A stretch of DNA of 32,000 nucleotides from Desulfotalea psychrophila LSv54 (GCF_000025945.1 NC_006138.1:2970001-3002000); one strand, 5' to 3'. Shown: positions 9,221 to 32,000, numbered from the stretch's first letter. The notes: a model not told the origin generated them from the letters alone. Numbers and translations: made by a program.

Positions 9221-9421
9221 ATGTTTGGACTTGGTATGCCGGAACTTATTGTTATCTTGGTTATCATCGTTATTATTTTTGGTGCAGGCAAATTACCGGA
9301 AATTGGCTCAGGTATCGGCAAGGGAATAAAAAACTTCAAGGAAGCCACTAAATCCGAAGAGGCTGCCAAAAAAATTGACAAGTCCGAGGAAAAATCCGAG
9401 GAAAAGCCCGAAGATAAATAA
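9221..9421 (+). CDS. tatA: twin-arginine translocase TatA/E family protein
   Basis: 66 aa. [29 protein letters not shown] is the TM helix plus FG hinge plus amphipathic helix. The tail is an acidic KSEE repeat. SD GAGG lies 7 nt upstream. Confidence 0.92.
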
Positions 9422-9512: not shown

Positions 9513-9767
9513 ATGTTCGGTCTCGGAGCCCCTGAGCTTATAGTTATTCTTGTTATTGTCATTTTAATTTTTGGTGGTAAAAAATTGCCCAAGCTTGGCT
9601 CAAGCCTTGGTCAGGCAATGAAATCTTTTAAGCAGGGCGTTAGTGACGTTGAAAAGGGCAGCAAAGACATTATGGGCGACATCCCCGGCGTCCAGGAGGC
9701 AACAGAGCTCAAGGAGAAGGTAGATCAGGTGAAAAACCTTGGCAAGGTGACAAAAATATTCAAATAG
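9513..9767 (+). CDS. second TatA/E family protein (paralogue)
   Basis: 84 aa. [33 protein letters not shown] has an FG hinge (TatA-type) rather than the GP hinge of TatB. SD GGAG lies 7 nt upstream. Confidence 0.88.
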   Translation: MFGLGAPELIVILVIVILIFGGKKLPKLGSSLGQAMKSFKQGVSDVEKGSKDIMGDIPGVQEATELKEKVDQVKNLGKVTKIFK

Positions 9768-10216: not shown

Positions 10217-11359
10217 ATGTGTCGTTTAGCTTTAAAAACCGCAACTGAACCTTTTTCGCCCTATGAGGTTCTTGAAGCCATGGAGGCTATGCAGGAGGGT
10301 TACGACGGTTCCGGCCTTGGCCTGCTCCTTCGTGGTCTGCAGTTTGCGGACTTCAAATACAATTCAAAATACCCCATATTGTCCGGTATTGCCCACTCGG
10401 AAGAGGCATGGGCCCGGATGAATGATTTTATGGACGAACGTGGTTATGAACTTAAGTATGACCATCGCTTTGCCATGGACCCCAAATACGCACAGACCGA
10501 AGGTCGTTTTCGCTACTTCCTTCGTGCCTATCGCATGCCGGAACGCTTTAAAAATGCTAGCCAACAAGAGAAAGATGATGAACTACTTCTTACTCGACTT
10601 GCCCTCCGCCAAAATGGCGAGGCACATGGCAACGACTTAACCGCCTTCTCCTTTTGGCCCGATGTCGCGATAATCAAAGAGGTTGGCTGGCCCCTTGAAA
10701 TTGGCAACGCCCTTCGCCTCTATGATGGCCAGATAAAGTCCCGTATCTGCATGGCCCAGGGACGACAAAACACCAACTACGGCATTAACCTCTACGCCTG
10801 TCACCCCTTCTTTATTCAAGGCATTGCCACCATGACCAATGGCGAAAACACCGCCTTTGTGCCCATCCGTGAATGGCTCCAGGCCAGACAATTTCCAGGC
10901 TATGTTGGCTACCAAAGTGACTCTGAGGTTTTTGCCCATATACTGCACTACACCCTCAGAGAGCTCAAATTGCCGCTGGAGGCCTATAAGCATATCATCA
11001 CCCCACTCTCTGGACGAGAGCTGGACGTTCATCCGCAGGGTGATTTCCTTAAAGGACTCAAGCAAACCTGTAGACGCCTCATCATCGATGGCCCCAATGC
11101 TATCATTGGCACCCTGTCGGATGAGACCTGTCTCCTGGCAATGGATCAGAAAAAACTTCGACCTGCTACCGTTGGCGGCCGAGAAGGCGAATGGGCTATT
11201 GCCTCAGAACTCTGTGGCGTTGCTGCCATGGTGCCTGACCGTGACCCATCCCTTGATTTTCAACCTATGCGTGAACACACAATCATCGTCCCACCAGATA
11301 GAAAGGAGTTGAAGATATGGTCTCAACAGGATCCATTCCAGTTACCCCCACTAGCTTAA
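10217..11359 (+). CDS. class II (Ntn) glutamine amidotransferase, stand-alone glutamate synthase domain-1-like subunit
   Basis: 380 aa starting MC (Cys2 nucleophile). SD AGGAG is upstream. It is first in a cluster with the FMN and GXGXG glutamate synthase modules. Confidence 0.8.
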   Translation: MCRLALKTATEPFSPYEVLEAMEAMQEGYDGSGLGLLLRGLQFADFKYNSKYPILSGIAHSEEAWARMNDFMDERGYELKYDHRFAMDPKYAQTEGRFRYFLRAYRMPERFKNASQQEKDDELLLTRLALRQNGEAHGNDLTAFSFWPDVAIIKEVGWPLEIGNALRLYDGQIKSRICMAQGRQNTNYGINLYACHPFFIQGIATMTNGENTAFVPIREWLQARQFPGYVGYQSDSEVFAHILHYTLRELKLPLEAYKHIITPLSGRELDVHPQGDFLKGLKQTCRRLIIDGPNAIIGTLSDETCLLAMDQKKLRPATVGGREGEWAIASELCGVAAMVPDRDPSLDFQPMREHTIIVPPDRKELKIWSQQDPFQLPPLA

Positions 11360-12957
11360 CATACAGCGATCTCCCGTGGATTATTGAGCACAGAGAGGAT
11401 AGATGTACCCTCTGTGGAAAATGCACAACTATATGCCCAAAGGGTGCTATCAGCCTGAGCTATAGACGTCAACGTTTACCCAAGCTCGATGTTTTCAGTA
11501 AAAAACGCTCCAGTGACTATCGCACCTTCACCGGTATTCGCCAGAGCACCGATCTTGCCCATGCCTGCATTGGCTGCGGCATGTGCGCCATGGTCTGCCC
11601 CAACGAGGCCATAACACCGGTCGCAAACGACAACGAACACCGCAGCCAGTTCTTCCACAATATAAATGGAGAACCATATAAACGCGGTGGACGCCGCAAT
11701 ATAAGCGGAGCTACCCTGCTTGACCGTATCATGTTCAACCGAATTTCCATGCTTACCGATCCCGCCCTGGACGCAGGCAGACATGAGTTCAACGTAACCA
11801 CTACTCTTGGTCGGGTCTTGGCCCCCAAGGAGTTCCTTGATCGTACCCGCAAGGGTGAATGGATACCTCCCACCAGGGAGATATTCCCCTTTGTCATTGG
11901 TTCCATGTCCTTTGGTGCTCTCTCACCGAATATGTGGCTTGGCTTGCTCCAGGGCGTTGCCTACTGCAATGAAGTCCTGGGAATTCCAGTCGTTATGTGT
12001 ACCGGCGAGGGTGGTTGCCCTCCATGGGTACTGAGAAGCCCATACCTCAAGTATATTATCCTGCAAATCGCCTCCGGTTATTTTGGTTGGGATGAAATCA
12101 TCCGTGCCATTCCGGAAATGGAGTGCATGCCAGCAGCAATTGAGATCAAATATGGACAGGGAGCAAAACCCGGTGACGGCGGACTGCTTATGGGACATAA
12201 GGTAAGTCAGCTCATCTCCCGACTACGTGGTGTACCTCAGGGCGTTGATCTACCTTCACCTCCAGTACATCAAACCCTGTACTCCATTGAAGAAAGTGTT
12301 ATGAAGATGATTCAAACACTCTCCACCGCATTTGATCACAAGGTACCGGTATACCCTAAGATTTCAGCCTCCACCTCGGCAAAATCCGTGCTCAACAACC
12401 TGGTGCGTAACCCCTATGCTGCCGGACTTACCATCGATGGCATTGACGGCGGAACCGGTGCAGCCTATGACGTTTCCATGCATGCAACAGGACACCCTAT
12501 CGCCTCCTGCGTACGTGAATGTTATCTCGAGTTGGCCAAGCAGGGAAAACAGAACGAAATTCCTATATTTGCAGCAGGTGGTATCGGCAAAAACGGCAAT
12601 GTTGCCCAAAACGGTATGGCCCTGATAATGCTTGGTGCATCGGGCGTTCATATTGGCAAGTATATCATGCAGGCCGCAGCCGGCTGTCTCGGTAACGAAA
12701 AAAACCGTTGCAACGTATGTAATCTTGGTATCTGTCCAAAGGGAATCACAAGCCAGAATCCAAAGCTCTACCGAAGACTTGACCCCGATAAGGTGGCCGA
12801 GAGAGTAGCCGAGGTATTCTGCTCCATCAATACCGAGGTCAAAAAAATCATGGCTCCTCTTGGTAGATCGCAAAGTCTTCCTATTGGTATGTCAGATGCC
12901 CTTGGTATTGCCGACAAGGCAGCGGCAGATAGACTCAACATAAAATACGTTTGCTAA
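11317..12957 (+). CDS. glutamate synthase FMN-binding (domain 2) subunit with N-terminal 2x[4Fe-4S] ferredoxin module
   Basis: 546 aa. Cys motifs CTLCGKCTTICP and CIGCGMCAMVCP. Glutamate synthase central-domain motifs KYGQGAKPGDGGLLMGHKV, SPPVHQTLYSIEE, IDGIDGGTGAA. SD AGGAG lies 8 nt before the ATG. Overlaps the upstream gene by 43 nt. Confidence 0.88.
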   Translation: MVSTGSIPVTPTSLTYSDLPWIIEHREDRCTLCGKCTTICPKGAISLSYRRQRLPKLDVFSKKRSSDYRTFTGIRQSTDLAHACIGCGMCAMVCPNEAITPVANDNEHRSQFFHNINGEPYKRGGRRNISGATLLDRIMFNRISMLTDPALDAGRHEFNVTTTLGRVLAPKEFLDRTRKGEWIPPTREIFPFVIGSMSFGALSPNMWLGLLQGVAYCNEVLGIPVVMCTGEGGCPPWVLRSPYLKYIILQIASGYFGWDEIIRAIPEMECMPAAIEIKYGQGAKPGDGGLLMGHKVSQLISRLRGVPQGVDLPSPPVHQTLYSIEESVMKMIQTLSTAFDHKVPVYPKISASTSAKSVLNNLVRNPYAAGLTIDGIDGGTGAAYDVSMHATGHPIASCVRECYLELAKQGKQNEIPIFAAGGIGKNGNVAQNGMALIMLGASGVHIGKYIMQAAAGCLGNEKNRCNVCNLGICPKGITSQNPKLYRRLDPDKVAERVAEVFCSINTEVKKIMAPLGRSQSLPIGMSDALGIADKAAADRLNIKYVC

Positions 12958-13013: not shown

Positions 13014-15341
13014 GTGACAAGAACTGTGATAAACGGCCTCGATGAAAACGGTCGTCGAATAAGCTCTATGGAGTTTGAGAAAATGGTCCGGGCTGCTGCC
13101 AGCAGCTCAGCCAATATCCATCTCAACTCCTACGGGCAACATAATATAGGTATTAGATTAGAGCACAAAGAGGGACTCAACATCACCGTTGAAGGCCCTT
13201 CTGGACAGCGTCTTGGTTGCATGGGACTTCCCGGCACCAAGATTGTCTGTAAGGGCGCCACCTCCGATGATGTCGGCTACCTGAATATTGGTGCTGAAAT
13301 CACCGTCCTCGGTGACGCCACCAACGGTGCCTGTAATGCCATGGCCATGGGCAAGGTCTATATTGGTGGCTCCATTGGTGCCCGTGGTCTGACCATGACC
13401 AAGTGGAACCCGGAGTATGAAAAACCTGAACTGTGGGTACTTGGCTCCACCGGCGATTCTTTTGCCGAATTCAACTGTGGTGGTATTGCTGTCGTCTGTG
13501 GCATCAAGCCCAAAACCCCGAAAAATATACTCGGCTATCGACCATGTGTCGGAATGGTTGGCGGCTCGATCTACTTCCGTGGACCAATAGATGACTCTTA
13601 CTCAAGACTTAATGCCAAGCTCTGCAAACTAGATGACCAGCAATGGCAGTGGCTCCTTGAAAATATGCCGACCTTTCTCGGCAATATCCAAAGAGAAGAT
13701 CTTAGTGAAGAACTCACCATCCGGGAAGATTGGCATGTCCTGAGCTCCATTACCACCCAAGAGCGGGCTCTTATGTGGGCAGGTCCCATGCCCATGGCAG
13801 AATTTCGCCGTGAACACTGGGATAAAACCTTTGGCGGTGACCCCCTACGTGATATTGCCCCTGGCCTTGACCGTAGTCCCATTAATGCCATCACCACCGG
13901 AGAACTTCGTCGCAAAAAGCCCTACTGGGCCAACAACGAATATTCTGCTCCCTGCACATACTACTGTCCAATTCACATTCCAACCGTGGAACGCCTGCGT
14001 CTTCTCCGAGAGGGAAGGGCAGATGAGGCCTACGAACTACTGCTCCGCTACACGCCTCTTCCCGCCTCTGTCTGCGGCGCTATTTGTCCTAACCAGTGCA
14101 TTCAGAATTGTTCAAGAAAAGGTGTTGATGAGGCCATTGACACCCAAATTCTTGGTCGGGCAGCTGGACATTTTCCGGCGCCTAAACCAGCAGCTGCCAC
14201 AGGCAAAAGAGTTGCCATCATTGGTGGTGGCCCCGGCGGCATGAATGCAGCATGGCAACTTGCCCTTAAAGGTATTGAGGCCCATATCTTTGAGCAAGAT
14301 GACAAACTCGGCGGCAAGCTGGCAGGAGTAATCCCCTGGGAGCGCCTGCCACAGGCAACATGGCAGTATGAAATCGATCGTTTCACCTCCATGGAGGGGA
14401 TCGAACTGCACCTGAATACCACCATGACCAAGGGAAAGTTTGCCGAGCTGCAAAGAGATTATGACTACGTTATCGTAGCCGTAGGAACCCACGAGCCACG
14501 AAGCATTCCATTTCCAGGACATGAGAAGGTGATCCCGGCCCTCCACTTCTTAAAGGATGCCAAAAACGCCAGCCACCCTCCACAGGTAGGCAGAGAAGTC
14601 GTGATCATCGGCGCAGGCAATGTCGGCTGTGATGTAGCCTGTGAGGCCTATCGCCTCGGCGCGGAAAAGGTTACCCTGATAGATATCCAAAAGCCGCTGG
14701 CCTTTGGTAACGAAAAAGAGGCAGCCGAAGCACTGGGCGCTCAATTTCGTTGGCCAATAACCACAAAGGAGGTAACGGATCAGGGTATTATCACCACGGA
14801 TGGCGAACTGATACCTGCTCAGACCGTTATTGTCTCTATTGGTGATGTTCCCGCCCTCTCCTTCCTGCCGGATTCCGTGGAGACCATGACCGTTGGTGGC
14901 GCAGATTGGGTAACCACCAACGAGGCATATGTTACCTCAAACAAGAAGGTACTTGCCGTAGGCGATGTAAAACGACCAGGGCTTGCAACCAACGCCTTGG
15001 GTGCTGGCAAAGACGCCGCAGAGTACATTCTTGCCACCGAAAAAGGCGAGAAGTGGGAGCCCTTCAGCAAACCACTCATTGCCCAATCCGCCCTGACCAT
15101 CACTCATTACGCGCCGATAGCAAAGGAAGCAACAGAGGCAAATCAGGCCGACCGTTGTCTCTCCTGTGCCTCCTGCCGTGATTGCCATCTCTGTGAAACC
15201 ATCTGTCCAGAGGGTGCCATTTCACGGGAAGATCTGGGCAACGGAGAGTATCGCTATGTCTCCAACGACGATAAATGTATCGCCTGTGGTTTTTGCGCCG
15301 ACACCTGTCCCTGTGGTATCTGGGTCATGAACCCCTACTAG
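13014..15341 (+). CDS. fusion protein: glutamate synthase GXGXG (domain 3) module + GltD-like NAD(P)H/FAD oxidoreductase + C-terminal 2x[4Fe-4S] ferredoxin
   Basis: 775 aa with GTG start and AGGAG 6 nt upstream. The N-terminal beta-helix repeat pattern is GPSGQRLGCMGLPGTKIVCKG...GDATNGACNAMAMGKVYIGGSIGARG. A GltD-type Cys cluster region follows (CPIHIP...CGAICPNQC). Dinucleotide folds are VAIIGGGPGGMNAA and VVIIGAGNVGCDVA. The C-terminus has CLSCASCRDCHLCETICP and CIACGFCADTCP. Confidence 0.88.
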   Translation: MTRTVINGLDENGRRISSMEFEKMVRAAASSSANIHLNSYGQHNIGIRLEHKEGLNITVEGPSGQRLGCMGLPGTKIVCKGATSDDVGYLNIGAEITVLGDATNGACNAMAMGKVYIGGSIGARGLTMTKWNPEYEKPELWVLGSTGDSFAEFNCGGIAVVCGIKPKTPKNILGYRPCVGMVGGSIYFRGPIDDSYSRLNAKLCKLDDQQWQWLLENMPTFLGNIQREDLSEELTIREDWHVLSSITTQERALMWAGPMPMAEFRREHWDKTFGGDPLRDIAPGLDRSPINAITTGELRRKKPYWANNEYSAPCTYYCPIHIPTVERLRLLREGRADEAYELLLRYTPLPASVCGAICPNQCIQNCSRKGVDEAIDTQILGRAAGHFPAPKPAAATGKRVAIIGGGPGGMNAAWQLALKGIEAHIFEQDDKLGGKLAGVIPWERLPQATWQYEIDRFTSMEGIELHLNTTMTKGKFAELQRDYDYVIVAVGTHEPRSIPFPGHEKVIPALHFLKDAKNASHPPQVGREVVIIGAGNVGCDVACEAYRLGAEKVTLIDIQKPLAFGNEKEAAEALGAQFRWPITTKEVTDQGIITTDGELIPAQTVIVSIGDVPALSFLPDSVETMTVGGADWVTTNEAYVTSNKKVLAVGDVKRPGLATNALGAGKDAAEYILATEKGEKWEPFSKPLIAQSALTITHYAPIAKEATEANQADRCLSCASCRDCHLCETICPEGAISREDLGNGEYRYVSNDDKCIACGFCADTCPCGIWVMNPY

Positions 15342-15525: not shown

Positions 15526-17292
15526 ATGGCAATGATTGACCCCCTACGTAAGATCCTGACCCCCCTCAAAGAGACACAAAATATTCGTGGTGTTGAGCTC
15601 CCCATCGGTTTGGAATTTCTCCAGCTCGTTGTTACCGGCCCCCCCGGTGCCGGCAAATCGTATTACATTGACCAGATAGGCGGTTGGCCCAACGAGGGCT
15701 ATATAGATCTCACCCATAAGGGTTGGTGGAAAGGGCAATCCCTCACCTATCGACCACGGGAGGTGCATCTGGGAATCCCCTTCAAGGGCTATAAAGAGGC
15801 CATAACCGTTTTTGACCGGGAATGGCTCGATGCCCCCACCCCTCCACGGCTGGACCTGTCACGCATAAAACTCCCCCCTGCCCAGGATGGTCTCTTTGTT
15901 ACCAACTGGAACGACAGATATATTTTTGAATTTCTTATCCCCGATGCAGCGACCGTCTACGCCCAGAGAACAGGCCGACAAGACGAGGGATATTTCCCGG
16001 TAGATGACGATCTCACCCTTTCCATGGTCGAAGAACAACTGCTGGTATATCAGGAGGTGGCTCACTATCTCCATAGGGCAGGAATGCACGTCTATGTACG
16101 CAAAGGTCTCAACTCACCGCCAATGATCATTGTAGAAAAGGGAAGTGGTACGGTTCCCTTCTGGTCTGTTGAGAAGAAGGTGGAGCGCCCCAGCCTACGC
16201 ACCCTCGCCGGTTGGCGCTATCTACTGCTTCACCACAGACCCATCAATTGGTTGCATATTAGCCATGAGAACAAACTCTTAACCAAGTCCGGCAGAATTG
16301 CCCACGATGGTCGCGGTTTTAAACTCCTCCTTGGCAAACAGTCTCTCTACTTTCAACCCGAAATCCCCCTGGGAATCTCTAAAAAAGAACTGACCAAGAA
16401 CTGGACCTTTAGCAGCAGCCTCCACTGCTCCGCGCCCAACAGCCCCGCTTTTTTGCGTTTGTGTGTAGGGGAGACCGCCATCCTGGGACGCCTTAACCAA
16501 GCCCTCACTGACATTGTCCAACTGGATAAATCTGTAGCAGGACGGCATGTCAGCGTTTCTAACATCAAGGGAGATCTCGTTCTCACCCCCCTTGATAATA
16601 CGGCAACAACATCCATTCGGCGCCTAAACGACCTTGACCATCGGGAAAAACTGGAAAGCAACCGCTATGCCTCCTTTATCGCTCTTCGCAAGCTGATGGA
16701 GGGTCCCATCCAGGAGCTGGATACAGAGAGAGCCCTGAGCGACCTACAACAGATTAATAAAATTTTGGCAGGAGAAAGCTCCCGCCCCATCAATAAAAAC
16801 GGTGAGCCGGGAGGCATCCTGGACCTCACAGAGGATGCCAACGCCATCATTGTCGGCGACCTCCATGGCCAGGTGGACAATTTTCTTAAAATTCTCACCG
16901 AAAACTGTATTATCCATAATCTGAGAAAACGGCGCTCCACCCTGATTATTCTGGGAGATGCCATCCACTCCGAGATTGCAGGCGAGATGGAAGATATGAC
17001 CAGCAGTGTCCTACTCATGGATATAATACTTCGTCTCAAACTGGCCTATCCCAAAAATGTCCACTATATTCGGGGTAATCACGATAGTTTTGATGCCACC
17101 ATCAGCAAGAATGGAATATCTCAGGGGCTACTCCACAAGGAGCATCTCCTTAAGATCCGTGGCTTGGAATACGTAAATGCCATGAACGCCTTTTGGCAGC
17201 AGATTCCCTATATCGTCCGCTCACCAATTTTTTCCGCCTGCCATGCAGGACCGCCCCTGACTGAATGCCCGAAAATGATCTTATTAATGTAA
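15526..17292 (+). CDS. multidomain protein: N-terminal P-loop NTPase-like region, central FHA-like segment, C-terminal PPP-family (calcineurin-like) Ser/Thr phosphatase domain; truncated by a frameshift
   Basis: 588 aa. Walker A is VVTGPPGAGKSY. The FHA-like stretch is ILGRLNQALTDIVQLDKSVAGRHVSV. Metallophosphatase motifs are IIVGDLHGQ, ILGDAIHSE, IRGNHD and ACHAG. The ORF stops before the final GH motif of the fold. Confidence 0.7.
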   Translation: MAMIDPLRKILTPLKETQNIRGVELPIGLEFLQLVVTGPPGAGKSYYIDQIGGWPNEGYIDLTHKGWWKGQSLTYRPREVHLGIPFKGYKEAITVFDREWLDAPTPPRLDLSRIKLPPAQDGLFVTNWNDRYIFEFLIPDAATVYAQRTGRQDEGYFPVDDDLTLSMVEEQLLVYQEVAHYLHRAGMHVYVRKGLNSPPMIIVEKGSGTVPFWSVEKKVERPSLRTLAGWRYLLLHHRPINWLHISHENKLLTKSGRIAHDGRGFKLLLGKQSLYFQPEIPLGISKKELTKNWTFSSSLHCSAPNSPAFLRLCVGETAILGRLNQALTDIVQLDKSVAGRHVSVSNIKGDLVLTPLDNTATTSIRRLNDLDHREKLESNRYASFIALRKLMEGPIQELDTERALSDLQQINKILAGESSRPINKNGEPGGILDLTEDANAIIVGDLHGQVDNFLKILTENCIIHNLRKRRSTLIILGDAIHSEIAGEMEDMTSSVLLMDIILRLKLAYPKNVHYIRGNHDSFDATISKNGISQGLLHKEHLLKIRGLEYVNAMNAFWQQIPYIVRSPIFSACHAGPPLTECPKMILLM

Positions 17293-17616: not shown

Positions 17617-17646
17617 TTGACAGGTAGTTATAGAGAGACAGATAAT
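17617..17646 (+). promoter_or_regulatory. sigma70-type promoter for the DUF47-PiT operon
   Basis: TTGACA (17617-17622), 18-nt spacer, GATAAT (17641-17646). Confidence 0.45.
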
Positions 17647-17659
17647 ACGGTTATTTTCT

Positions 17660-17676
17660 TGACAGCCTTACTGTCA
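17660..17676 (+). promoter_or_regulatory. palindromic operator-like site TGACAG-N5-CTGTCA
   Basis: Perfect 6-bp inverted repeat just downstream of the predicted TSS. CTGTCATA (17671-17678) equals the first 8 nt of the E. coli Pho-box repeat. Confidence 0.3.
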
Positions 17677-17745
17677 TACAATAAAAACCGTGGAAATCTG
17701 TTTTTATTAATCCCTATCGAACTAATAAAAGTAAGGTATTATATT

Positions 17746-18432
17746 ATGGCTCTTTTACCAACCAGTGCCCTCTCGGGACTCCTTCGCGGTTCGCCGTTTA
17801 AACCTATTCAGGAACATATGAGAGTAGTATTTTCCTGCGTTTGCCAGATACCACCATTATTTGATGCCCTATATCACAAAGATGACGTTCAGCTCTCCAT
17901 ATTTGCTGAAAAAATAATTAATCTTGAGACCGAAGCGGATAAACTCAAAAGCAAGTTTCGTCTCAATATGCCTAAATCGCTCCTGCTTCCAGTTGATCGT
18001 AAAGATCTTCTCGGTCTCATCAGTGATCAAGATGCAATTGCAGATACAACGGAGGAAATTGCCCAAATACTGCTCTACCGAGATATGACGGTACCAGAAG
18101 AATTGAAGGTGCTCCTTGACGAACTCCTTGAGGCCACCATAGAAATTTCCTCCGACGCAAAGGCCATCATCGAACAACTCGACGAACTCCTGGAAGTAGG
18201 TTTTGGCGGAAGAGAATTTGATAAAGTTACAAGGATGATCGCTGGCGTTCGACGTGGCGAACATAATATTGATAACATACTACACAGATCTAGACGTGCC
18301 CTTTTTGAAGTAGAAAATAGCCTTGACCCTGTCTCGGTTATGTTCTGGTATGAGATTCTTGGTTTACTCGGTAAGATTTCCGATTTAGCCGAGAACCTTG
18401 GCGACCGCCTGCTTCTATTCATGTCTAAATAA
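17746..18432 (+). CDS. DUF47 / TIGR00153 PhoU-like phosphate-transport accessory protein
   Basis: The ORF track starts at TTG 17617, but ATG 17746 (MALLPTSALSGLLRGSPFKPIQEHM...) has AAGG upstream and gives the usual ~228 aa. Lies directly upstream of a PiT transporter, the classic pairing. Confidence 0.8.
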   Translation: MALLPTSALSGLLRGSPFKPIQEHMRVVFSCVCQIPPLFDALYHKDDVQLSIFAEKIINLETEADKLKSKFRLNMPKSLLLPVDRKDLLGLISDQDAIADTTEEIAQILLYRDMTVPEELKVLLDELLEATIEISSDAKAIIEQLDELLEVGFGGREFDKVTRMIAGVRRGEHNIDNILHRSRRALFEVENSLDPVSVMFWYEILGLLGKISDLAENLGDRLLLFMSK

Positions 18433-18444
18433 TCTGGGGGAAAT

Positions 18445-19710
18445 ATGGAAATTATTGCCGCACATGGCACAGCAATGCTCATTATGGCCGTTATATTCGG
18501 CCTGTATATGACCTGGGGCATAGGCGCTAACGACCTCGCTAATGCCATGGGAACTTCGGTTGGAGCCGGAGCGATCACCGTAAAGCAGGCCATTGGAATT
18601 GCTATTTTTTTTGAATTCCTTGGAGCTGTTATTGCAGGTGGAAATGTTACTAAAACCATTCGAAAGGGAATTATTGATCCCTCAACCCTGGTCAACACGC
18701 CTGAGATACTCGTCTACGGCATGCTTGCCGCCCTTCTTGCGGCAGCAGTATGGCTAATGATAGCCTCATCCCGTGGTTGGCCTGTATCCACCACCCACTC
18801 CATTATCGGTGCTCTGGTGGGCTTTGCCATAGTTGGCATTGGTCCGGGAGCCGTGCATTGGGGAAAAATAGGCAGTGTTGTTGCCAGTTGGATTGTCTCA
18901 CCTATAATTGGTGGAACCATCGCCTATCTGCTCGTTATGAGCACCAGAAAGCTTATTTTTGACACAGCTAACCCTCTTAAAAATGCCAAAAGATATGCGC
19001 CCTTCTATGTCTTTCTAGTAGGGTTTATCATCTCGCTGGTTACCCTCTTTAAGGGTTTGAAGCATCTCAACATCGACCTCACCTCAGGGCAAAGTCTTCT
19101 CTGTGCTGCTCTTTTTGGTTGTTTTACCGCCCTTATGGGTTGGTATCTCACCAAAGACATTAAAGAGGATGTTACTGCCAACCGAGAGTTCAGCTTTGCA
19201 AGTGTTGAGAGGGTATTCACCCCCATGATGCTCTTCACTGCCTGCTCCATGGCCTTCGCCCACGGCTCAAATGACGTAGCCAATGGCATTGGACCACTTG
19301 CTGCCGTCTATAGCATTATTAGCTCCGGTGGTGAAGTTATGCAGGACTCACAGCTTCCCATCTGGATCCTTCTTCTAGGTGGTGCGGGTATTGTCCTTGG
19401 TCTTATCACCCTCGGTTACCGGGTAATGCTTACCGTGGGGAAAAAAATCACAGAGCTTACCCCCTCCCGAGGTTTCTGCGCAGAACTTGCCGCAGCCATT
19501 ACCGTTGTTATTGCTTCGCGTACGGGACTGCCTGTTTCCACCACTCATATCCTTGTCGGCTCCGTACTCGGGGTAGGCCTGGCACGAGGAGTAGGAGCAC
19601 TTGACCTGCGGGTGATCCTCAACATTGTCATATCCTGGGTTGTCACCCTGCCCGCAGGGGCATTTATGGCAATGCTCTTCTTCTTCACCCTTAAGGGTAT
19701 CTTTGGTTAA
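18445..19710 (+). CDS. pit: inorganic phosphate transporter, PiT family
   Basis: 421 aa, polytopic. Has the duplicated PiT signature GANDLANAMGTSVG and GSNDVANGIGP. Confidence 0.92.
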   Translation: MEIIAAHGTAMLIMAVIFGLYMTWGIGANDLANAMGTSVGAGAITVKQAIGIAIFFEFLGAVIAGGNVTKTIRKGIIDPSTLVNTPEILVYGMLAALLAAAVWLMIASSRGWPVSTTHSIIGALVGFAIVGIGPGAVHWGKIGSVVASWIVSPIIGGTIAYLLVMSTRKLIFDTANPLKNAKRYAPFYVFLVGFIISLVTLFKGLKHLNIDLTSGQSLLCAALFGCFTALMGWYLTKDIKEDVTANREFSFASVERVFTPMMLFTACSMAFAHGSNDVANGIGPLAAVYSIISSGGEVMQDSQLPIWILLLGGAGIVLGLITLGYRVMLTVGKKITELTPSRGFCAELAAAITVVIASRTGLPVSTTHILVGSVLGVGLARGVGALDLRVILNIVISWVVTLPAGAFMAMLFFFTLKGIFG

Positions 19711-25175: not shown

Positions 25176-26894
25176 ATGACAAACAAAGAAATTATAAAAA
25201 GATTGTACCACGAGATCATTCCCTATAAAATCCCGCTATTTATAGCAATGTTTGCCATGATTGTCGTAGCGGCCCTCACGGGCGCTCAGGCATATTTGGT
25301 GAAGGATCTCCTCGATAAAATCTTTATGGAAAAAGATGTCTTTTTTCTGCAAATACTTCCCCTTATTATTATTGCCATCTTCTTCACTAAGGGTGTCCTC
25401 TACTATACCTATGCAATCATTCTTGAGAGGGTTGGTCAATCTATTATTCGTGATTTTCGTCTGAAAATATTTGCCCACATACACCGCCAATCCCTCTCCT
25501 TTTTCCATAACACCCCGACAGGCACCTTGATATCCAGAGTGCTCTCCGACGTTGCTCTTATGCAACAGGCTGTCTCCACTGTTATCATCCAGCTCCTACG
25601 AGATTTTTTCCAAGTGATCTTCCTGCTTGGCGTCATCTTCTACATGAACTGGAAACTTGCCCTGATATGTTTTCTCATCATCCCCCTGGCAGCCATCCCC
25701 ATCGTCAAATTTGGTAAAATCTTCAGAAAGCTGAGCACAAAAACCCAGGAGGAGACTGCTGAAGTCTCCAACATGCTCCATGAGACAATTTCCGGAAGCA
25801 GAATTGTCAAAGCATTCTGCCGAGAAGATTATGAGGTAGAGCGCTTTCACAGGCAAGTAGAGACACTCTTTACCATCACCATGAAGAATGCAAAATACCG
25901 CGTATTCCAAAGCCCCCTGATGGAAATAATAGGTGGTTTTGCCGTAGCGGGCATCATCTGGGTGGGCGGCAGTGAAGTCATTAACGGCTCGGCAACACCG
26001 GGTACCTTTTTTGCCTTCTTAACAGCAATGATCACCGCCTACGACCCCGTGAAGCGAGTCAGTCAAGTCAACTCAACGATCCAACAGGGACTTGCCTCGG
26101 CACAACGGGTCTTTGCCATATTGGATATTAAGCCGGAAATAGAGGACAAGCCGGAAGCAACGTCCCTCGCCCCCTTCAAAGAATCCATCGAGTTTCATGA
26201 TGTTTCCTTCTCCTACGGAACAGAAAAAATTCTCTCTCACATCAACCTGAAGGTCCCTGCCGGAGAGGCCCTGGCCATTGTCGGCCCCAGCGGTGGGGGT
26301 AAAACAACCCTTACCAACCTTATTCCCAGGTTTATTGACTTGCAAGAGGGTTCAATCACCATCGACGGCACCGATATTAGAGATGTCACCACCAACTCCC
26401 TGCGCAATCAAATTGCCATGGTCACCCAACAGACAATTCTCTTTAACGACACCATCAGAAACAATATCGCCTACGGCAAGGACAGCTGTACAGAAGAGGA
26501 GATCAGACGGGCGGCAAAGGCAGCCCATGCCCTGACCTTTATAGAGGAACTTCCCAATGGCTTTGATACCGCCCTCGGCGAGGGAGGGGCAAAACTCTCG
26601 GGCGGACAGCGCCAGAGAATCTCTATTGCCCGGGCCCTCCTGGCCGATGCCCCCATTCTTATTTTAGATGAGGCAACCTCAGCCCTCGATACAGAATCAG
26701 AACGAGAGGTACAAAAGGCCCTGGAAAACCTTATGCAAAACCGAACAACCTTTGTTATTGCCCATAGACTTTCAACAATCAAAAACGCATCTCGAATTGT
26801 GGTGGTCAAAAAGGGAAAAATAGTAGAAGAGGGAAGTCACGAGGAACTGCTAAAGCTTGAGGGCGAATACCAACTACTCTACAATATGCAATAG
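25176..26894 (+). CDS. msbA: ABC transporter permease/ATPase, lipid A export MsbA-like
   Basis: 572 aa. Six-TM N-terminal domain, Walker A GPSGGGKTT, signature LSGGQRQRISIARAL, Walker B ILILDEATSALD. Confidence 0.88.
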   Translation: MTNKEIIKRLYHEIIPYKIPLFIAMFAMIVVAALTGAQAYLVKDLLDKIFMEKDVFFLQILPLIIIAIFFTKGVLYYTYAIILERVGQSIIRDFRLKIFAHIHRQSLSFFHNTPTGTLISRVLSDVALMQQAVSTVIIQLLRDFFQVIFLLGVIFYMNWKLALICFLIIPLAAIPIVKFGKIFRKLSTKTQEETAEVSNMLHETISGSRIVKAFCREDYEVERFHRQVETLFTITMKNAKYRVFQSPLMEIIGGFAVAGIIWVGGSEVINGSATPGTFFAFLTAMITAYDPVKRVSQVNSTIQQGLASAQRVFAILDIKPEIEDKPEATSLAPFKESIEFHDVSFSYGTEKILSHINLKVPAGEALAIVGPSGGGKTTLTNLIPRFIDLQEGSITIDGTDIRDVTTNSLRNQIAMVTQQTILFNDTIRNNIAYGKDSCTEEEIRRAAKAAHALTFIEELPNGFDTALGEGGAKLSGGQRQRISIARALLADAPILILDEATSALDTESEREVQKALENLMQNRTTFVIAHRLSTIKNASRIVVVKKGKIVEEGSHEELLKLEGEYQLLYNMQ

Positions 26895-26902
26895 GACTCC
26901 TC

Positions 26903-26932
26903 TCCCTGTTGCCGCTCAGTTGGTAACAGGGA
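26903..26932. terminator. hairpin between convergent msbA and histidine kinase genes
   Basis: TCCCTGTT (26903-26910) / AACAGGGA (26925-26932), 8 bp perfect with a 14-nt loop. The U tracts are weak. Confidence 0.4.
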
Positions 26933-26937
26933 AAGGA

Positions 26938-28704
26938 TTACGCTGCCAAAGGCAAAGAAACGGTGGCTATACAACCACTCTCTACCCCATTTTCTAGATA
27001 AAGCTTACCACCATGCTCTCCAATGATCTTGGCACTCATGGACAGCCCCAGTCCAGTTCCCTCTGCCTTGGTAGTAAAGTAGGGATCAAAAACATGAGCG
27101 AGCAAACTCTTCTCTACCCCCAGGCCATCATCAATGATCTGCACCTGATAAAAGCCAGCAACAACCTGGCAACGAACAACAATCTCCCCACCTGCCTGCA
27201 TAGCTTGAAAACTGTTTAAAAGCAGATTCAAAAACACCTGATTCAACCTATCAGCACTGCCGAGTACCCGTAGGGACGTGTCAGAAAATTCCGTAACAAG
27301 GCTAATACCTGCATCCTCTGCGTCCAAGGCGACCAAAGAGAGGGCCTTGGTAATTACCTTTTCCAGATAGACAATCTCGCCTCTCTCCTCCTCAGGCTTT
27401 GCATAGTCAAGAAGTTCTGTAATACTTCTATTGAGTCTTTCCACCTCATCCACCAGGACCTGAGCCGTTTGCTGCCCCTTAGAACCACCGGCAAAAAACG
27501 AGTGGAGAAGCATACCAAGGCCCTTAATTGAGCTGAGTGGATTACGCAGTTCGTGAGCAACTCCGGCTGCCATCTTACCAAGAGAGGCCAGATGGGCATG
27601 CCGTTGCATCTCTCTCTCCAATGCCTTCTGAGTCGTGAGGTCCTGGAGAAGAATCACATAGCCATCCTCATCACCAAGATCATTTTTCACCTCAACCAAA
27701 TTCAAAAAAAGTACCTTCTTTCCATCATCCGCCTCAACCTCTATCTCCTTCCCCTCCTGCCACCGACTGAGATCAAGAGCCAGCGAGGAGTGGGCCATTA
27801 ACTCCTCAAGCGGTTTTCCCAGAAAAGATTCATCCCTTATGCTCAGCAGAAAGCAGGCTGCATCGTTGATCAGACGGATAGCACCGTCACGGCCAACACC
27901 GACAAGACCAACGGGGATCGAGGCAACAAGATGATCTGTAAACACACGCATCTTGGCAAGCTCTGACTCAGAATGGCGAAAACTCTGCAGGGTCAAGAGA
28001 GAGAGCCCTCCACCCAGACCAACAAGCAATAAGACCACGGAGAGGATGGCTATTTGATTACGATTTTCTTTAAAACCGCTATTAAACTGATCGAGATCGA
28101 GGACGGCAAAGAGCCAGAGCCTTTTGCCATAGATGGTACCGGGACCTGCAAAAAACGGTCTATCTTTCCTGTGATGCATCATGGGACGCATTGCAGAACG
28201 CCGGCCCTGCCGGGAAAGATCAAGTAGAGTGAGCACCTGAAAAGTTTTTCCGTCGACATCTTCAGGAGCAAGTTCCCGAAAGAAAAACCTCTTCCTCCCT
28301 TGACCGACTACCGATTCTTTTAAAAATTTTTCGTCCGCTTGGGACAGAGCAAGCTCTTCACCATCCACCACCGAGGAGAGCACCTGACCATCAGCCAAAA
28401 CAATCTGCAGAGAATCCACCCCGGCCTGCTCCTGGGCCTGATCAATGGCCCGAAGCAGATAACCCTTAAAAAGGGTATTATCTATCGTCCCACCGGCACG
28501 ACGCAAAGATTTACGCATATCACTGGCAATAATACGACGTACAGCCTCTGTCTGTTGAAAAAGGGCGTTTTCCAACAACACCCTCTCTCGCTTATGCGAA
28601 CTCACCCCCAAGCCGGCAATAATAGCCGCGAGCAAGAAACATGCTACCGCAAAAATCCAAGGAGAGACATTAACAAGACCCTTTTTCATAGAACTCTGCC
28701 TCAC
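26938..28704 (-). CDS. membrane sensor histidine kinase (two TM helices flanking a periplasmic domain, PAS, HisKA, HATPase_c)
   Basis: 588 aa. H-box AHELRNPLSSIKG, N-box LNLLLNSFQAM, G-boxes IDDGLGV and GTGLGLSMS. TM1 is WIFAVACFLLAAIIAGLGV and TM2 is IAILSVVLLLVGLGGGLSLL. The start is GTG 28704 or ATG 28689. Confidence 0.9.
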   Translation of the reverse strand: MRQSSMKKGLVNVSPWIFAVACFLLAAIIAGLGVSSHKRERVLLENALFQQTEAVRRIIASDMRKSLRRAGGTIDNTLFKGYLLRAIDQAQEQAGVDSLQIVLADGQVLSSVVDGEELALSQADEKFLKESVVGQGRKRFFFRELAPEDVDGKTFQVLTLLDLSRQGRRSAMRPMMHHRKDRPFFAGPGTIYGKRLWLFAVLDLDQFNSGFKENRNQIAILSVVLLLVGLGGGLSLLTLQSFRHSESELAKMRVFTDHLVASIPVGLVGVGRDGAIRLINDAACFLLSIRDESFLGKPLEELMAHSSLALDLSRWQEGKEIEVEADDGKKVLFLNLVEVKNDLGDEDGYVILLQDLTTQKALEREMQRHAHLASLGKMAAGVAHELRNPLSSIKGLGMLLHSFFAGGSKGQQTAQVLVDEVERLNRSITELLDYAKPEEERGEIVYLEKVITKALSLVALDAEDAGISLVTEFSDTSLRVLGSADRLNQVFLNLLLNSFQAMQAGGEIVVRCQVVAGFYQVQIIDDGLGVEKSLLAHVFDPYFTTKAEGTGLGLSMSAKIIGEHGGKLYLENGVESGCIATVSLPLAA

Positions 28705-28715
28705 AGGGAGGCCTC

Positions 28716-30425
28716 TTAAAAAATTTTACTTTGAAAAATTTTCCCTAAGATTACCCGGGTAACAAGATATGTTGAGAAGACCCCCTCCGAGCCCATGGGG
28801 CCGGAGGCAAGGGTCTGACCACTTATAAGCGGGTTATCCGATGCATAATAGGCACAACGTACCTTGACATCAGCAGATAATCTTTTCCGTATTATGCTCG
28901 CACCAATTGCTCGCTGAAAATGGGCTCCCTCCATCTCCAGCCCCACCATCCCCCACTTGGATTTTAAAAATCTTTTGAGCAGATCGCTGTTTTGCAGGGA
29001 GGTGCCCAGGACCGTCAGCATTGAACCCGTAACAACTCTTATGCCCTTCTTACAGATGGTAAAATCTTCCGGTGCCAAATCGTTATCTACAATATAGTTA
29101 TCAGGTGTACCCTCAAGCACATAGGCGGAGGCCAACATAATGTCACCTTTTTTACCAGCAAGAATGCCCGCCTTACCCATAACAGAGATAGATTTCACAT
29201 CAAGTTTACAGTGGGGAAAATCGTCCTGGCCCCTTAAAAACTCATCAAGAATAGTAAAGGCCTGGGTACCAAAGGCATAATCAATCACCAGAAGCACAGG
29301 GGCATCTTCTCCCCATTGGTCGCCGACAATAGATGGATGGAGCACCTCAACTTTAGAGGTATCAATAAACTGAACATCAATACTGGAGCCAGATGTATCA
29401 TGCCAAAAGCGAAAACCATGCGCCAGGGCATACTCCTCCAGATCATCTTCTTCATCCCTAAGCTCCCGCACCATTACCGCCAGATCACTGGGTACCTCTC
29501 GATCTTGCCTCTGTAAATAGCCAGGACCATAGAGCACGTTACGACAGGAATGCATATTAGCACTAATTATATGCAGGGACCGATTCGCTAAACCACCCTC
29601 AACAATAGCCCCTATAACAGACTTTGCCCAAACAGATGCATACTTACTGGCGGCTATCATATCGTTCATGGAAGGGGCACATACTATCTGAAAGGTACTG
29701 GAAGGGTTTACCTCACACCCACCCCGGCACCTCCTCCCTATTTCATAAATAAAGGAGAAGAGACTGCTATTGGCACCATCCCGCAGGCGAGTTCCCTCCA
29801 AATACTCATAACTATCCCTGGTTTCCTTATAGCTGCGACCAAGAAATTTCGAGAGAACCCAGAGGGCCTGATCAAGCTCTTCCCCCTGAAGTTCAAGGTC
29901 TTCCCCCTGAAGCTGAACCCCACTCTCCATCAGTTTTTTTAACTTGGCCCAGTCGCCATTTACGGGGTCTTCTTCCGCCCGTATCAAATTATGTATCTTA
30001 GAGGCCTCAAGATTTAAAAAAACAATATGAGTAAGAATGTCATAAACCTCGCTCTCGCCCCGGGTGACGATAAAGCACATTTCAGTCTCAGAAATAGCAT
30101 AGGAGAGCCTGCGTCGTTTAAGTGGCGTCCTCTTTTCAAAGGATGTTTGAGCAAAATCGTCAACACTGGTAAGGACAAGTTTTTCACATTTCTCAATTCC
30201 ACGGGGCATACGATTAATCACGTACTCCAAGCCTTTAAGCTCAACGACACGCGGATCATTCATGGAACCATATATTTCAGGACTGATCTGAATGAGGGCC
30301 TCTGCCAACTTCTCCCCCATCACATCGGTTGGTCGATAATAACCCTGAATAATAATCGCATCGGCTATGGTTTTAAATGTAGCAATTGCCCTACGAGACC
30401 GTTGCGCCTTGGTAAGATGGTCCAT
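28716..30425 (-). CDS. uncharacterised protein: unknown ~380-aa N-terminal region + C-terminal nucleoside phosphorylase (PNP_UDP_1/MTA-AMP nucleosidase)-like domain
   Basis: 569 aa with SD GAGGA 6 nt upstream of the ATG. The C-terminal pattern is VLLVIDYAFGTQA, SVMGKAGILAGKKGDIML, GSMLTVLG, GLEMEGAHFQRA. I recognise no motif in the N-terminal two-thirds. Confidence 0.75.
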   Translation of the reverse strand: MDHLTKAQRSRRAIATFKTIADAIIIQGYYRPTDVMGEKLAEALIQISPEIYGSMNDPRVVELKGLEYVINRMPRGIEKCEKLVLTSVDDFAQTSFEKRTPLKRRRLSYAISETEMCFIVTRGESEVYDILTHIVFLNLEASKIHNLIRAEEDPVNGDWAKLKKLMESGVQLQGEDLELQGEELDQALWVLSKFLGRSYKETRDSYEYLEGTRLRDGANSSLFSFIYEIGRRCRGGCEVNPSSTFQIVCAPSMNDMIAASKYASVWAKSVIGAIVEGGLANRSLHIISANMHSCRNVLYGPGYLQRQDREVPSDLAVMVRELRDEEDDLEEYALAHGFRFWHDTSGSSIDVQFIDTSKVEVLHPSIVGDQWGEDAPVLLVIDYAFGTQAFTILDEFLRGQDDFPHCKLDVKSISVMGKAGILAGKKGDIMLASAYVLEGTPDNYIVDNDLAPEDFTICKKGIRVVTGSMLTVLGTSLQNSDLLKRFLKSKWGMVGLEMEGAHFQRAIGASIIRKRLSADVKVRCAYYASDNPLISGQTLASGPMGSEGVFSTYLVTRVILGKIFQSKIF

Positions 30426-30473: not shown

Positions 30474-30526
30474 CAGAAAAGATTAATACAACACGTATGA
30501 AAATACTACCATATCGTGTTGTATTA
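30474..30526 (-). terminator. intrinsic terminator after engB
   Basis: Perfect 12-bp inverted repeat TAATACAACACG (30484-30495) / CGTGTTGTATTA (30515-30526). On the minus strand it is followed by ATCTTTTCTG. Confidence 0.6.
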
Positions 30527-31295: not shown

Positions 31296-32000
31296 TCAGA
31301 TCACCTTATTAAGAGCATACTCAATGATACCCTCGGCCCCAACCTTATGCAAACGGGGCACAAGATCACGAACAATATCTTTTGAGATAACAGTCTCAAC
31401 GGAAAACCATTCAGCATCGGAGAGTCCTGCTACAGTCGGAGCATTAACACTGGGGAGCATTGCAACAATTTCGTCAAGTTGCTCTGCTGCCACATTCATC
31501 TTGAGACCAACAATCCTATCGGCCTTGAGGGCCCCTTGAAGCAGGAGGCACATATTCTCAATTTTTTCACGCTTCCAAGGGTTCTCCCAAGCCTCTTTAT
31601 TGGCTATAAACTGGGTATTGGACTCCATGAGTTCATAAATAATTCTGAGACCATGGGCACGGATAGTATTTTCTGTTTCCGTTACCTCAACCACCGCATC
31701 CACAAGACCTGCAACTACCTTTGCCTCGGTGGCACCCCAAGAAAACTCGATCTCTACGTTGATACCAAGATCCTTAAAAAATCTCTCACTAACGCCAACG
31801 AGTTCTGTAGAAATTTTCTTCCCCTCAAGATCTTCAAGGGTTTTGATATCAGAATCACCAGCCACGGCAACCACCCAACGAGTGGGGCGGTTACTCACTT
31901 TAGAATAGACCAGATCACTTACCACAACAATCTCTGACTGATTCTCCATGGTCCAATCTTTGCCGGTGATACCAGCGTCCAACATACCACTCTCGACATA
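31296..32000 (-). CDS. hisG: ATP phosphoribosyltransferase, long form (N-terminus beyond window end)
   Basis: The frame stays open to the window edge (..YVESGMLDAGITGKDW..). The C-terminal HisG regulatory domain is present (LKMNV...APTVAGLSDAEWFSVETVI...GAEGIIEY). Confidence 0.9.
   Translation of the reverse strand, partial: YVESGMLDAGITGKDWTMENQSEIVVVSDLVYSKVSNRPTRWVVAVAGDSDIKTLEDLEGKKISTELVGVSERFFKDLGINVEIEFSWGATEAKVVAGLVDAVVEVTETENTIRAHGLRIIYELMESNTQFIANKEAWENPWKREKIENMCLLLQGALKADRIVGLKMNVAAEQLDEIVAMLPSVNAPTVAGLSDAEWFSVETVISKDIVRDLVPRLHKVGAEGIIEYALNKVI

Follow-up and report, generated by a model that had tools for sequence, protein, structure and literature searches.

A predicted purine N-ribosyl-cleaving protein of the DUF6909 family and the orphan histidine kinase encoded beside it in Desulfotalea psychrophila and other Desulfobulbales

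In the genome of Desulfotalea psychrophila LSv54, the gene for a 569-residue protein of the family DUF6909 lies directly upstream of the gene for a membrane sensor histidine kinase. The two genes span positions 26938-30425 on the minus strand of a stretch of 32,000 nucleotides (nt; NC_006138.1:2970001-3002000), which is called the window here and to which all positions refer. We propose, with a probability of about 0.6, that DUF6909 is a housekeeping enzyme cleaving purine N-ribosyl bonds, which in one lineage is co-transcribed with an orphan kinase of ZraS/AtoS type. DUF6909 would then be a soluble enzyme of two domains. The C-terminal one, of ~290 residues, would bind a purine (adenine-type) riboside or ribotide and cleave the N-glycosidic bond; both the catalysis and the substrate class are what we infer from fold and active site. 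By analogy with AMP nucleosidase, the N-terminal ~280 residues may act as a regulatory, ligand-binding or oligomer-forming module. The kinase gene would have come to lie directly downstream of DUF6909 in Desulfobulbales, and the regulator of the kinase would be encoded elsewhere in the genome.

The product of 28716-30425 is 100% identical to the protein annotated at NCBI as 'DUF6909 family protein' of D. psychrophila. It matches Pfam PF21850 (DUF6909) with 181.2 bits against a cut-off of 27, above the gathering threshold, in three stretches that reach profile position 535 of 535. No NCBIfam family model matches it, and it has no hydrophobic segment, which makes it a cytosolic protein. More than 8000 clusters at 90% identity were scored as homologues; they are ~560 residues long and align end to end, the best 120 of them with 51-62% identity at 99-100% coverage. 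The 569-residue protein is thus a full-length member of an already catalogued family and not a new fusion. An earlier note on this DNA, made from the sequence alone, had seen a novel fusion whose first ~380 residues match no family. This description does not hold: the whole protein belongs to PF21850, homologues align over residues 1-567, and the architecture is invariant across the family.

At least 595 species encode a DUF6909 relative in GTDB contigs with one genome per species. The best 80 of them share 40-55% identity over residues 1-567 and come from Desulfobulbales, Desulfobacterales, Syntrophobacterales, SAR324 and one Spirochaetota metagenome-assembled genome (MAG), together with many Cytophagales, Flavobacteriales, Chitinophagales and Saprospiraceae. 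More divergent copies with 24-28% identity occupy other gene contexts. One such copy (L085:2280-3968, L086, L087; GCA_964441565.1), which is 26% identical in the N-terminal domain, is surrounded by genes for an ELP3-like radical SAM protein, Nre, DUF211 and GH57. This neighbourhood looks archaeal, and the family may extend into archaea.

The C-terminal half is, according to its predicted structure, a domain of the nucleoside phosphorylase-I (NP-I) type, the fold of PNP, MTAN, UP and AMP nucleosidase (residues 282-569; 28719-29582, minus strand). The full AlphaFold2 (AF2) model, built on 43 homologues, has a mean predicted local distance difference test score (pLDDT) of 76, with values of 85-96 across much of residues 260-440. 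With Foldseek, the model has 564 PDB matches at E<=0.001, the 50 listed being NP-I enzymes without exception. The top matches are AMP nucleosidase (2guw, 1t8s), MTAN (1nc3), UP (4k6o) and PNP (1pke, 1xe3), with E-values of 3e-8 to 5e-7, a probability of 1.0 and target template-modelling scores (TM-scores) of 0.56-0.67 over ~300 aligned columns. The domain starts at about residue 282 with strand 283-288 as beta1, and it bears an inserted helical/beta segment at ~300-376. Hence the PNP-type C-terminus claimed in the earlier note is borne out as a fold, and its proposed boundary at ~380 moves to ~282. Among Pfam families, PNP_UDP_1 (PF01048) is the only one besides DUF6909 that C-domains of the family match recurrently; the matches are weak and occur in 19 of 43 members, at best with an E-value of 3.9e-4.

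For mapping of the active site, 13 diverse C-domains were aligned with E. coli Mtn, DeoD and the catalytic part of Amn (MAFFT L-INS-i), and conservation was measured over 79 DUF6909 sequences spanning phyla. All canonical NP-I blocks fall in register and in the same order. LHIISA of DUF6909 aligns with E. coli IGIIGA, DYAFGTQA with KSGIGKVA and GHGMGIPS, MGKAG with TGSAG, VGSCG and IGHCG, KKGDIML with KVGDIVV, GLEMEG with AVEMEA, GVEMEA and AIDMES, and ASDNPL with ISD, VSD and VSDKPL. Within GLEMEG (residues 495-500; 28926-28943, minus strand), M498 corresponds to M173 of MTAN, M180 of PNP and M404 of Amn, and E499, the ribose-binding glutamate, to E174, E181 and E405, respectively. YYASDNPL (residues 526-533; 28827-28850, minus strand) contains D530, which takes the place of the base-contacting general acid, D197 in MTAN, D204 in PNP and D428 in Amn. 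That these are studied active-site residues is apparent from the titles of mutant structures among the Foldseek matches, 1z5o (D197N) and 9fxe (D204N). In the Klebsiella Amn structure, M404, E405 and D428 contact base and sugar, and it is exactly these three that Amn homologues conserve (PMC9584410).

Three further positions depart from the characterized enzymes. K418 of MGKAG (residues 416-420; 29166-29180, minus strand) stands at the position of S76 in MTAN, of the phosphate ligand S90 in PNP and of H305 in Amn. V415 replaces R87, a phosphate ligand in PNP, and L477 replaces the base-stacking phenylalanines F151 and F159. The positions M498, E499, D530, K418, L477 and V415 are all conserved to at least 97%. 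The motifs that the earlier note quoted exist and are conserved across the family, and the PNP catalytic residues it wished to see checked, the Met-Glu pair and the aspartate, are kept. Because they are kept and conserved, the C-domain looks catalytically competent for purine N-ribosyl cleavage. The phosphorolytic set of PNP (R24, R87, S90) was not found, R87 and S90 being replaced by V415 and K418 in an alignment-dependent assignment. The R24 region aligns unreliably, with a non-conserved R295, and the alignment is likewise unreliable at the position of the water-activating Glu12 of MTAN. With the phosphate-binding arginine missing from the alignment, hydrolysis in the style of MTAN or AMP nucleosidase appears more likely than phosphorolysis.

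The best known relative in structural terms is Amn, the best Foldseek match of DUF6909 (2guw_B, E 3.1e-8). Amn (1t8s, 2guw, 7uwq) likewise consists of an accessory N-domain followed by a C-terminal NP-I catalytic domain. Its triad M404/E405/D428 is kept as M498/E499/D530, its SDKPL resembles SDNPL of DUF6909, and its AHAYL resembles ASAYV. In contrast, DUF6909 matches neither the NCBIfam nor the Pfam models of Amn and has no AMNp_N Pfam hit. The N-domains of the two proteins are unrelated, as the two-domain chains 1t8s, 2guw and 7uwq are absent from the Foldseek list obtained with the DUF6909 N-domain. DUF6909 also carries an extra insertion of ~75 residues after beta1 and has Lys418 where Amn has His305. 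While the matched Amn structures are enterobacterial, DUF6909 is found in Desulfobacterota, Bacteroidota and SAR324. MtnN and the hexameric PNP DeoD share the fold, and their ribose-binding glutamate and base-protonating aspartate are kept; DUF6909 differs from them in its twofold length with a 280-residue N-domain and in the exchanges of R87 of PNP for Val, of S76/S90 for Lys and of the base-stacking Phe for Leu477.

The N-terminal domain (residues 1-280; 29586-30425, minus strand) is specific to the family and is modelled by AF2 as alpha/beta plus helical. Modelled alone, it reaches a pLDDT of 80.7 and a predicted TM-score of 0.79. Foldseek returned no significant PDB match for it, the best having an E-value of 0.04 and TM-scores not exceeding 0.2. 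Weak matches to uridine phosphorylase and MTAN (E 0.04-0.5, TM-score ~0.15, root-mean-square deviation ~19 Å) were taken as noise, since an hhalign comparison of the N-domain with the C-domain shows no similarity and gave no sign of an internal duplication. A phmmer search of 1.84e9 representative proteins recovered the N-domain in 121 clusters. All full-length carriers are 527-577 residues long with the domain at the N-terminus, and the remainder are fragments. The domain thus exists in a single architecture, N-terminal in proteins of ~560 residues.

Over the 79 sequences, the N-domain is conserved to the same degree as the catalytic domain. Its motifs are PEIYG (49-53), ELxGLxYVxxRxPxGIExC (62-80), PxKRRR (101-106) and YDxxTH...E...K (128-143). 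The near-invariant basic motif PxKRRR(x)S (window 30108-30119, residues 103-106) lies in a loop modelled with low confidence (pLDDT below 50 for residues 100-105). The motif could serve in the binding of polyanions or nucleotides, or in regulation.

This conservation bears on an alternative that we consider improbable, namely that DUF6909 is a non-catalytic regulator or scaffold with an NP-I fold, or that it carries out a different reaction centred on the N-domain. Invariant polar residues are as numerous in the N-domain as in the C-domain (E50, Y52, E62, R72, R104, R106, Y128, D129, T132, H133, E140, K143), the canonical PNP phosphate ligands are missing, an equivalent of Glu12 of MTAN cannot be aligned reliably, and PNP_UDP_1 is matched only below threshold. 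Against it stands the invariance, across phyla, of the three residues that define substrate binding and catalysis in NP-I enzymes, of the flanking Gly-rich loops and of the beta-strand blocks. Pseudoenzymes usually lose such catalytic residues.

Several results weigh against an N-ribosyl-cleaving enzyme more generally. The D. psychrophila protein scores below the gathering score of PF01048 (13 bits against 25.1, E 0.066). Searches of PDB sequences by phmmer and by profile hmmsearch, with the protein and with the family alignments, returned noise only, and the family alignments gave nothing significant for NP-I. Comparison of the C-domain profile with single E. coli Mtn, DeoD and Amn sequences by hhalign was not significant either; the best local match to DeoD, within this overall non-significant result, is the G(V/L)EME block. 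With sequence homology to NP-I below threshold, the residue equivalences rest on one MAFFT alignment and on the predicted fold. A second catalytic site could be built from the highly conserved polar residues in the N-domain, in which case the chemistry may exceed simple nucleoside cleavage. A literature search for DUF6909 or PF21850 found no paper mentioning either.

The second gene of the pair (26938-28704, minus strand) encodes a kinase of 588 residues. Hydropathy places a first transmembrane (TM) segment at residues 8-38 and a second at 216-242, enclosing an extracytoplasmic domain of ~180 residues for which Pfam has no match; this sensor region (27979-28704) is conserved among orthologues with 26-35% identity. 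A cytoplasmic PAS domain follows (residues 257-360; 27625-27936; PAS_4, E 1.3e-7). The HisKA dimerisation and phospho-acceptor domain spans residues 375-439 (27388-27582) with H384 in HELRNPL, and HATPase_c spans residues 483-587 (26944-27258) with its N, G1, F and G2 boxes. All domains score above threshold, and the sequence retains H384 and complete H, N, G1, F and G2 boxes, as is characteristic of a class I (HisKA) kinase. The assignment as a membrane kinase with PAS, HisKA and HATPase domains, made earlier from the bare sequence, is therefore correct.

Its best NCBIfam matches are AtoS (257.6 bits, cut-off 646) and ZraS (242.6 bits, cut-off 479), both below the cut-offs of these equivalog models, and residues 240-586 are 31% identical to E. 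coli AtoS. ZraS and AtoS are NtrB-type HisKA kinases with sigma-54 activators as partners, and the HELRNPL H-box is common to them and to this kinase. Their sensor domains are unrelated to that of the kinase, and, unlike in their systems, no NtrC-type regulator is adjacent in ~100 loci with this kinase or a relative. Judged by its sequence features, the protein is a canonical, catalytically intact TM PAS-HisKA kinase of a ZraS/AtoS-like orphan family, and this family appears to be conserved across Desulfobacterota.

Of 80 genome loci, 20 have a full-length kinase orthologue (36-40% identity, sensor region included) directly downstream of DUF6909 and on its strand, with a spacer of less than ~90 nt. 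All of these loci that carry a taxon name belong to Desulfobulbaceae or Desulfocapsaceae, with the genera Desulfoprunum, Desulforhopalus, Desulfocapsa, Desulfofustis and Ca. Desulfatifera. The outer flanks vary: some paired loci have hisI-hisG-engB upstream and genes of Wzy_C/msbA/lpxL type downstream, and others have gpmI upstream and DUF4126/glgB downstream. The kinase is absent from the other ~58 genome loci, where nothing else is conserved. It was not found next to DUF6909 in Desulfobacterales, SAR324, Syntrophobacterales, Bacteroidota or the divergent loci examined, and all-against-all clustering of neighbours in the 80 loci revealed no conserved partner besides the Desulfobulbales kinase. 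Neighbours outside Desulfobulbales include purD, dTDP-rhamnose (rfb) genes, a GH3 family protein, an M23 peptidase, gpmI, a UDG-like gene, thiolase, thioredoxin, thioredoxin reductase and ELP3. Adjacency of kinase and DUF6909 is an order-specific arrangement of Desulfobulbales, and the label 'kinase-associated' given by the earlier note applies to this order (20 of 80 loci) and fails in the other lineages examined.

Seen from the side of the kinase, a metagenome scan with a six-sequence alignment of its sensor region returned 80 loci, of which 72 had enough upstream DNA to look for DUF6909. DUF6909 is directly upstream in 32 of these, mostly in the closest relatives, with 3-76 nt between aligned ends, and is missing in the other 40. 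The two genes thus also exist apart, and neither protein needs the other in general. The kinase relatives without DUF6909 lie between uvrC-DUF166 and tsaE-ycaO or after priA (for example L124:1419-8210, L148:435-2954 and L153:2296-2754). Some of them are divergent to a Metal_resist (CpxP/ZraP-like) gene, without zraR, much as zraP is divergent to zraS. At one Desulfoprunum locus (L094:11694-14596), the kinase stop codon overlaps the start of a GT4 glycosyltransferase gene, followed by Wzy_C and msbA. The DUF6909-kinase pair adjoins genes related to lipopolysaccharide (LPS) in the Desulfoprunum sublineage, as it does with msbA in the window.

The same adjacency invites the view that the pair is a signalling module of Desulfobulbales, in which the enzyme makes or destroys a small purine-derived ligand sensed by the cytoplasmic PAS domain, or in which the kinase binds and regulates the enzyme directly, with no receiver domain involved, so that the pair would act as a metabolic-state sensor. 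We regard this as possible, at a low probability. In all 20 Desulfobulbales genome loci and in 32 metagenome loci, the two genes remain neighbours, co-directional and closely spaced, despite differing flanks, the spacer of 11-26 nt in the window fits coupled expression, the kinase has a cytoplasmic PAS domain, and a cognate regulator was not found nearby. A functional link would also account for the strict retention of the pair in the whole order across changes of the outer flanks; this retention counts against the lineage-restricted co-transcription that we favour, and 'only co-transcribed' may understate the relationship. On the other hand, both families are widespread without each other, and DUF6909 lacks phospho-acceptor domains, receiver and HPt included. 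The kinase is an orphan in every context and stands beside unrelated core genes elsewhere (uvrC, priA, tsaE), so that proximity to core genes is its normal state. The LPS genes with the glycosyltransferase overlap and the divergent CpxP/ZraP-like gene suggest a role of the kinase at the envelope.

The earlier note was right that the window encodes no receiver. Pfam identified none in any large open reading frame (ORF) of the window, and jackhmmer, iterated from the E. coli AtoC receiver, identified none when run over every stop-to-stop frame of 60 residues or more. No cognate response regulator was found in the window or beside any kinase orthologue examined, and no receiver adjoins a kinase in the 80 metagenome loci. 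The only two receiver-like ORFs in those loci lie on the opposite strand, upstream of the DUF6909 gene. Near the DUF6909-kinase pair of the closest relatives, receivers come only from a chemotaxis cluster.

In these relatives, hisI-hisG-engB-DUF6909 is preceded at a distance of 3-9 kb by this cluster, cheA(hybrid)-cheW-cheB-cheR-cheY, which is encoded on the opposite strand. In a Desulfotalea sp. MAG the cluster occupies L093:152-6284, and its equivalent would fall past position 32000 of the window. Its receivers were considered as partners of the kinase and rejected, as they belong to chemotaxis genes on the other strand and the kinase is of the HisKA type.

A histidine kinase occurring together with a PNP-fold protein recalls the anti-phage system Detocs, and this is the sole ground for reading the pair as a Detocs-like or other anti-phage system, in which the kinase would sense infection and activate a PNP-type effector that depletes nucleotides. 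Detocs consists of three genes, the TPR sensor kinase DtcA, the stand-alone receiver DtcB ('buffer') and the receiver-PNP fusion DtcC (bioRxiv 10.1101/2023.01.24.525353). The likeness to Detocs and to immune ATP nucleosidases of the Cap17 type is that a kinase gene stands beside a PNP-fold gene whose catalytic Asp is conserved. The pair differs in having neither receiver domains nor a third gene, and in its TM-PAS sensor in place of TPR. None of DtcA, DtcB and DtcC is present: Pfam and jackhmmer found no Response_reg in the DUF6909 protein, the 32-kb window has no stand-alone receiver, and Pfam found no TPR region in the kinase, whose sensor is of the TM-periplasmic-TM-PAS form. Neither protein matches PADLOC-DB 2.0.0 at E<=1, a release for which the presence of Detocs models is unconfirmed. 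Moreover, DUF6909 is near-universal in large clades, is conserved across phyla and has housekeeping neighbours, and the base composition of the locus is not atypical (GC 0.48-0.50, within a range of 0.43-0.53 for the window). DUF6909 behaves as a vertically inherited housekeeping gene and not as a mobile or defence gene. The defence-like interpretation offered earlier is thus abandoned, and we consider an anti-phage function of the pair almost certainly wrong.

Within the locus, ORF calling and the sequence agree with the two gene positions and the 11-nt spacer reported in the earlier note. The DUF6909 gene has AGGA 8 nt 5' of its ATG. The spacer (28705-28715, minus strand) reads TAA-gaggcctccct-GTG, with GAGG directly after the DUF6909 stop codon; it extends to 26 nt if the kinase starts at the in-frame ATG of codon 6. 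Upstream of the DUF6909 gene, a terminator-like hairpin 3' of engB (30484-30526, minus strand) has a stem of 12+5 base pairs followed by AAUCUUUUCUGU. It folds with -18.9 kcal/mol (z -5.08), and 0 of 200 shuffles fold equally well. A second hairpin (26898-26937, both strands) lies between the convergent msbA-like gene, which ends at 26894, and the kinase gene, which ends at 26938; its energies on the two strands are -24.4 and -24.8 kcal/mol (z -5.5 and -5.3 against shuffles). A U-rich run follows the engB hairpin, and none is clear after the second. The bracketing hairpins on which the earlier note based an autonomous operon are real, both folding far better than shuffles. A consensus scan between the engB hairpin and the DUF6909 start codon found no sigma-70-like promoter, so that an autonomous operon is no more than plausible. 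We consider the two genes probably co-transcribed in Desulfobulbales. An Rfam search of the window and of five further DUF6909 loci, each in full, yielded neither riboswitches nor other RNAs.

Other genes of the window gave additional observations. The tandem ORFs 9221-9421 (66 residues) and 9513-9767 (84 residues) on the plus strand both start with MFGLG(M/A)PELIVILVI and, from this shared start, look like a duplicated gene of TatA/E type. A plus-strand ORF of 380 residues (10217-11359) without a Pfam match at E<=0.001 overlaps the start of the next gene by 43 nt. What follows is a glutamate-synthase-like pair, with Glu_synthase and Fer4 at 11317-12957 and GXGXG and pyridine-nucleotide oxidoreductase at 13014-15341, and the 380-residue ORF may be its missing amidotransferase-type subunit. 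A protein of 588 residues (15526-17292, plus strand) matches Metallophos at residues 441-529 only, its first ~440 residues being without a family. Downstream of its gene comes a PhoU_div/PHO4 phosphate-transporter pair (17617-19710).

We conclude that the tempting annotation as a defence system is unsupported and can be removed, and that the kinase beside DUF6909 is a member of a conserved family of orphan kinases. A bolder version, in which DUF6909 is an unrecognised, phylum-spanning nucleotide or nucleoside N-glycosidase that is wired directly in Desulfobulbales to a receiver-less ZraS-like kinase as a non-canonical pair, is a long shot. In this version, DUF6909 could be a functional analogue of Amn, regulating the adenylate pool of Bacteroidota and Desulfobacterota under allosteric control by a structurally new N-domain. 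For the housekeeping enzyme that we prefer, the remaining interest lies in a DUF with an enzymatic hypothesis and a structurally unassigned N-domain, and in a pair that is stable within Desulfobulbales. The family counts thousands of sequences in Bacteroidota, Desulfobacterota and SAR324, and divergent members occur beyond these groups. If the fold and the active-site mapping hold, this large conserved DUF gains a testable hypothesis, purine N-ribosyl cleavage by an NP-I domain joined to a new accessory domain, which, if true, could fill a gap in nucleoside and nucleotide salvage or in adenylate homeostasis in these phyla.

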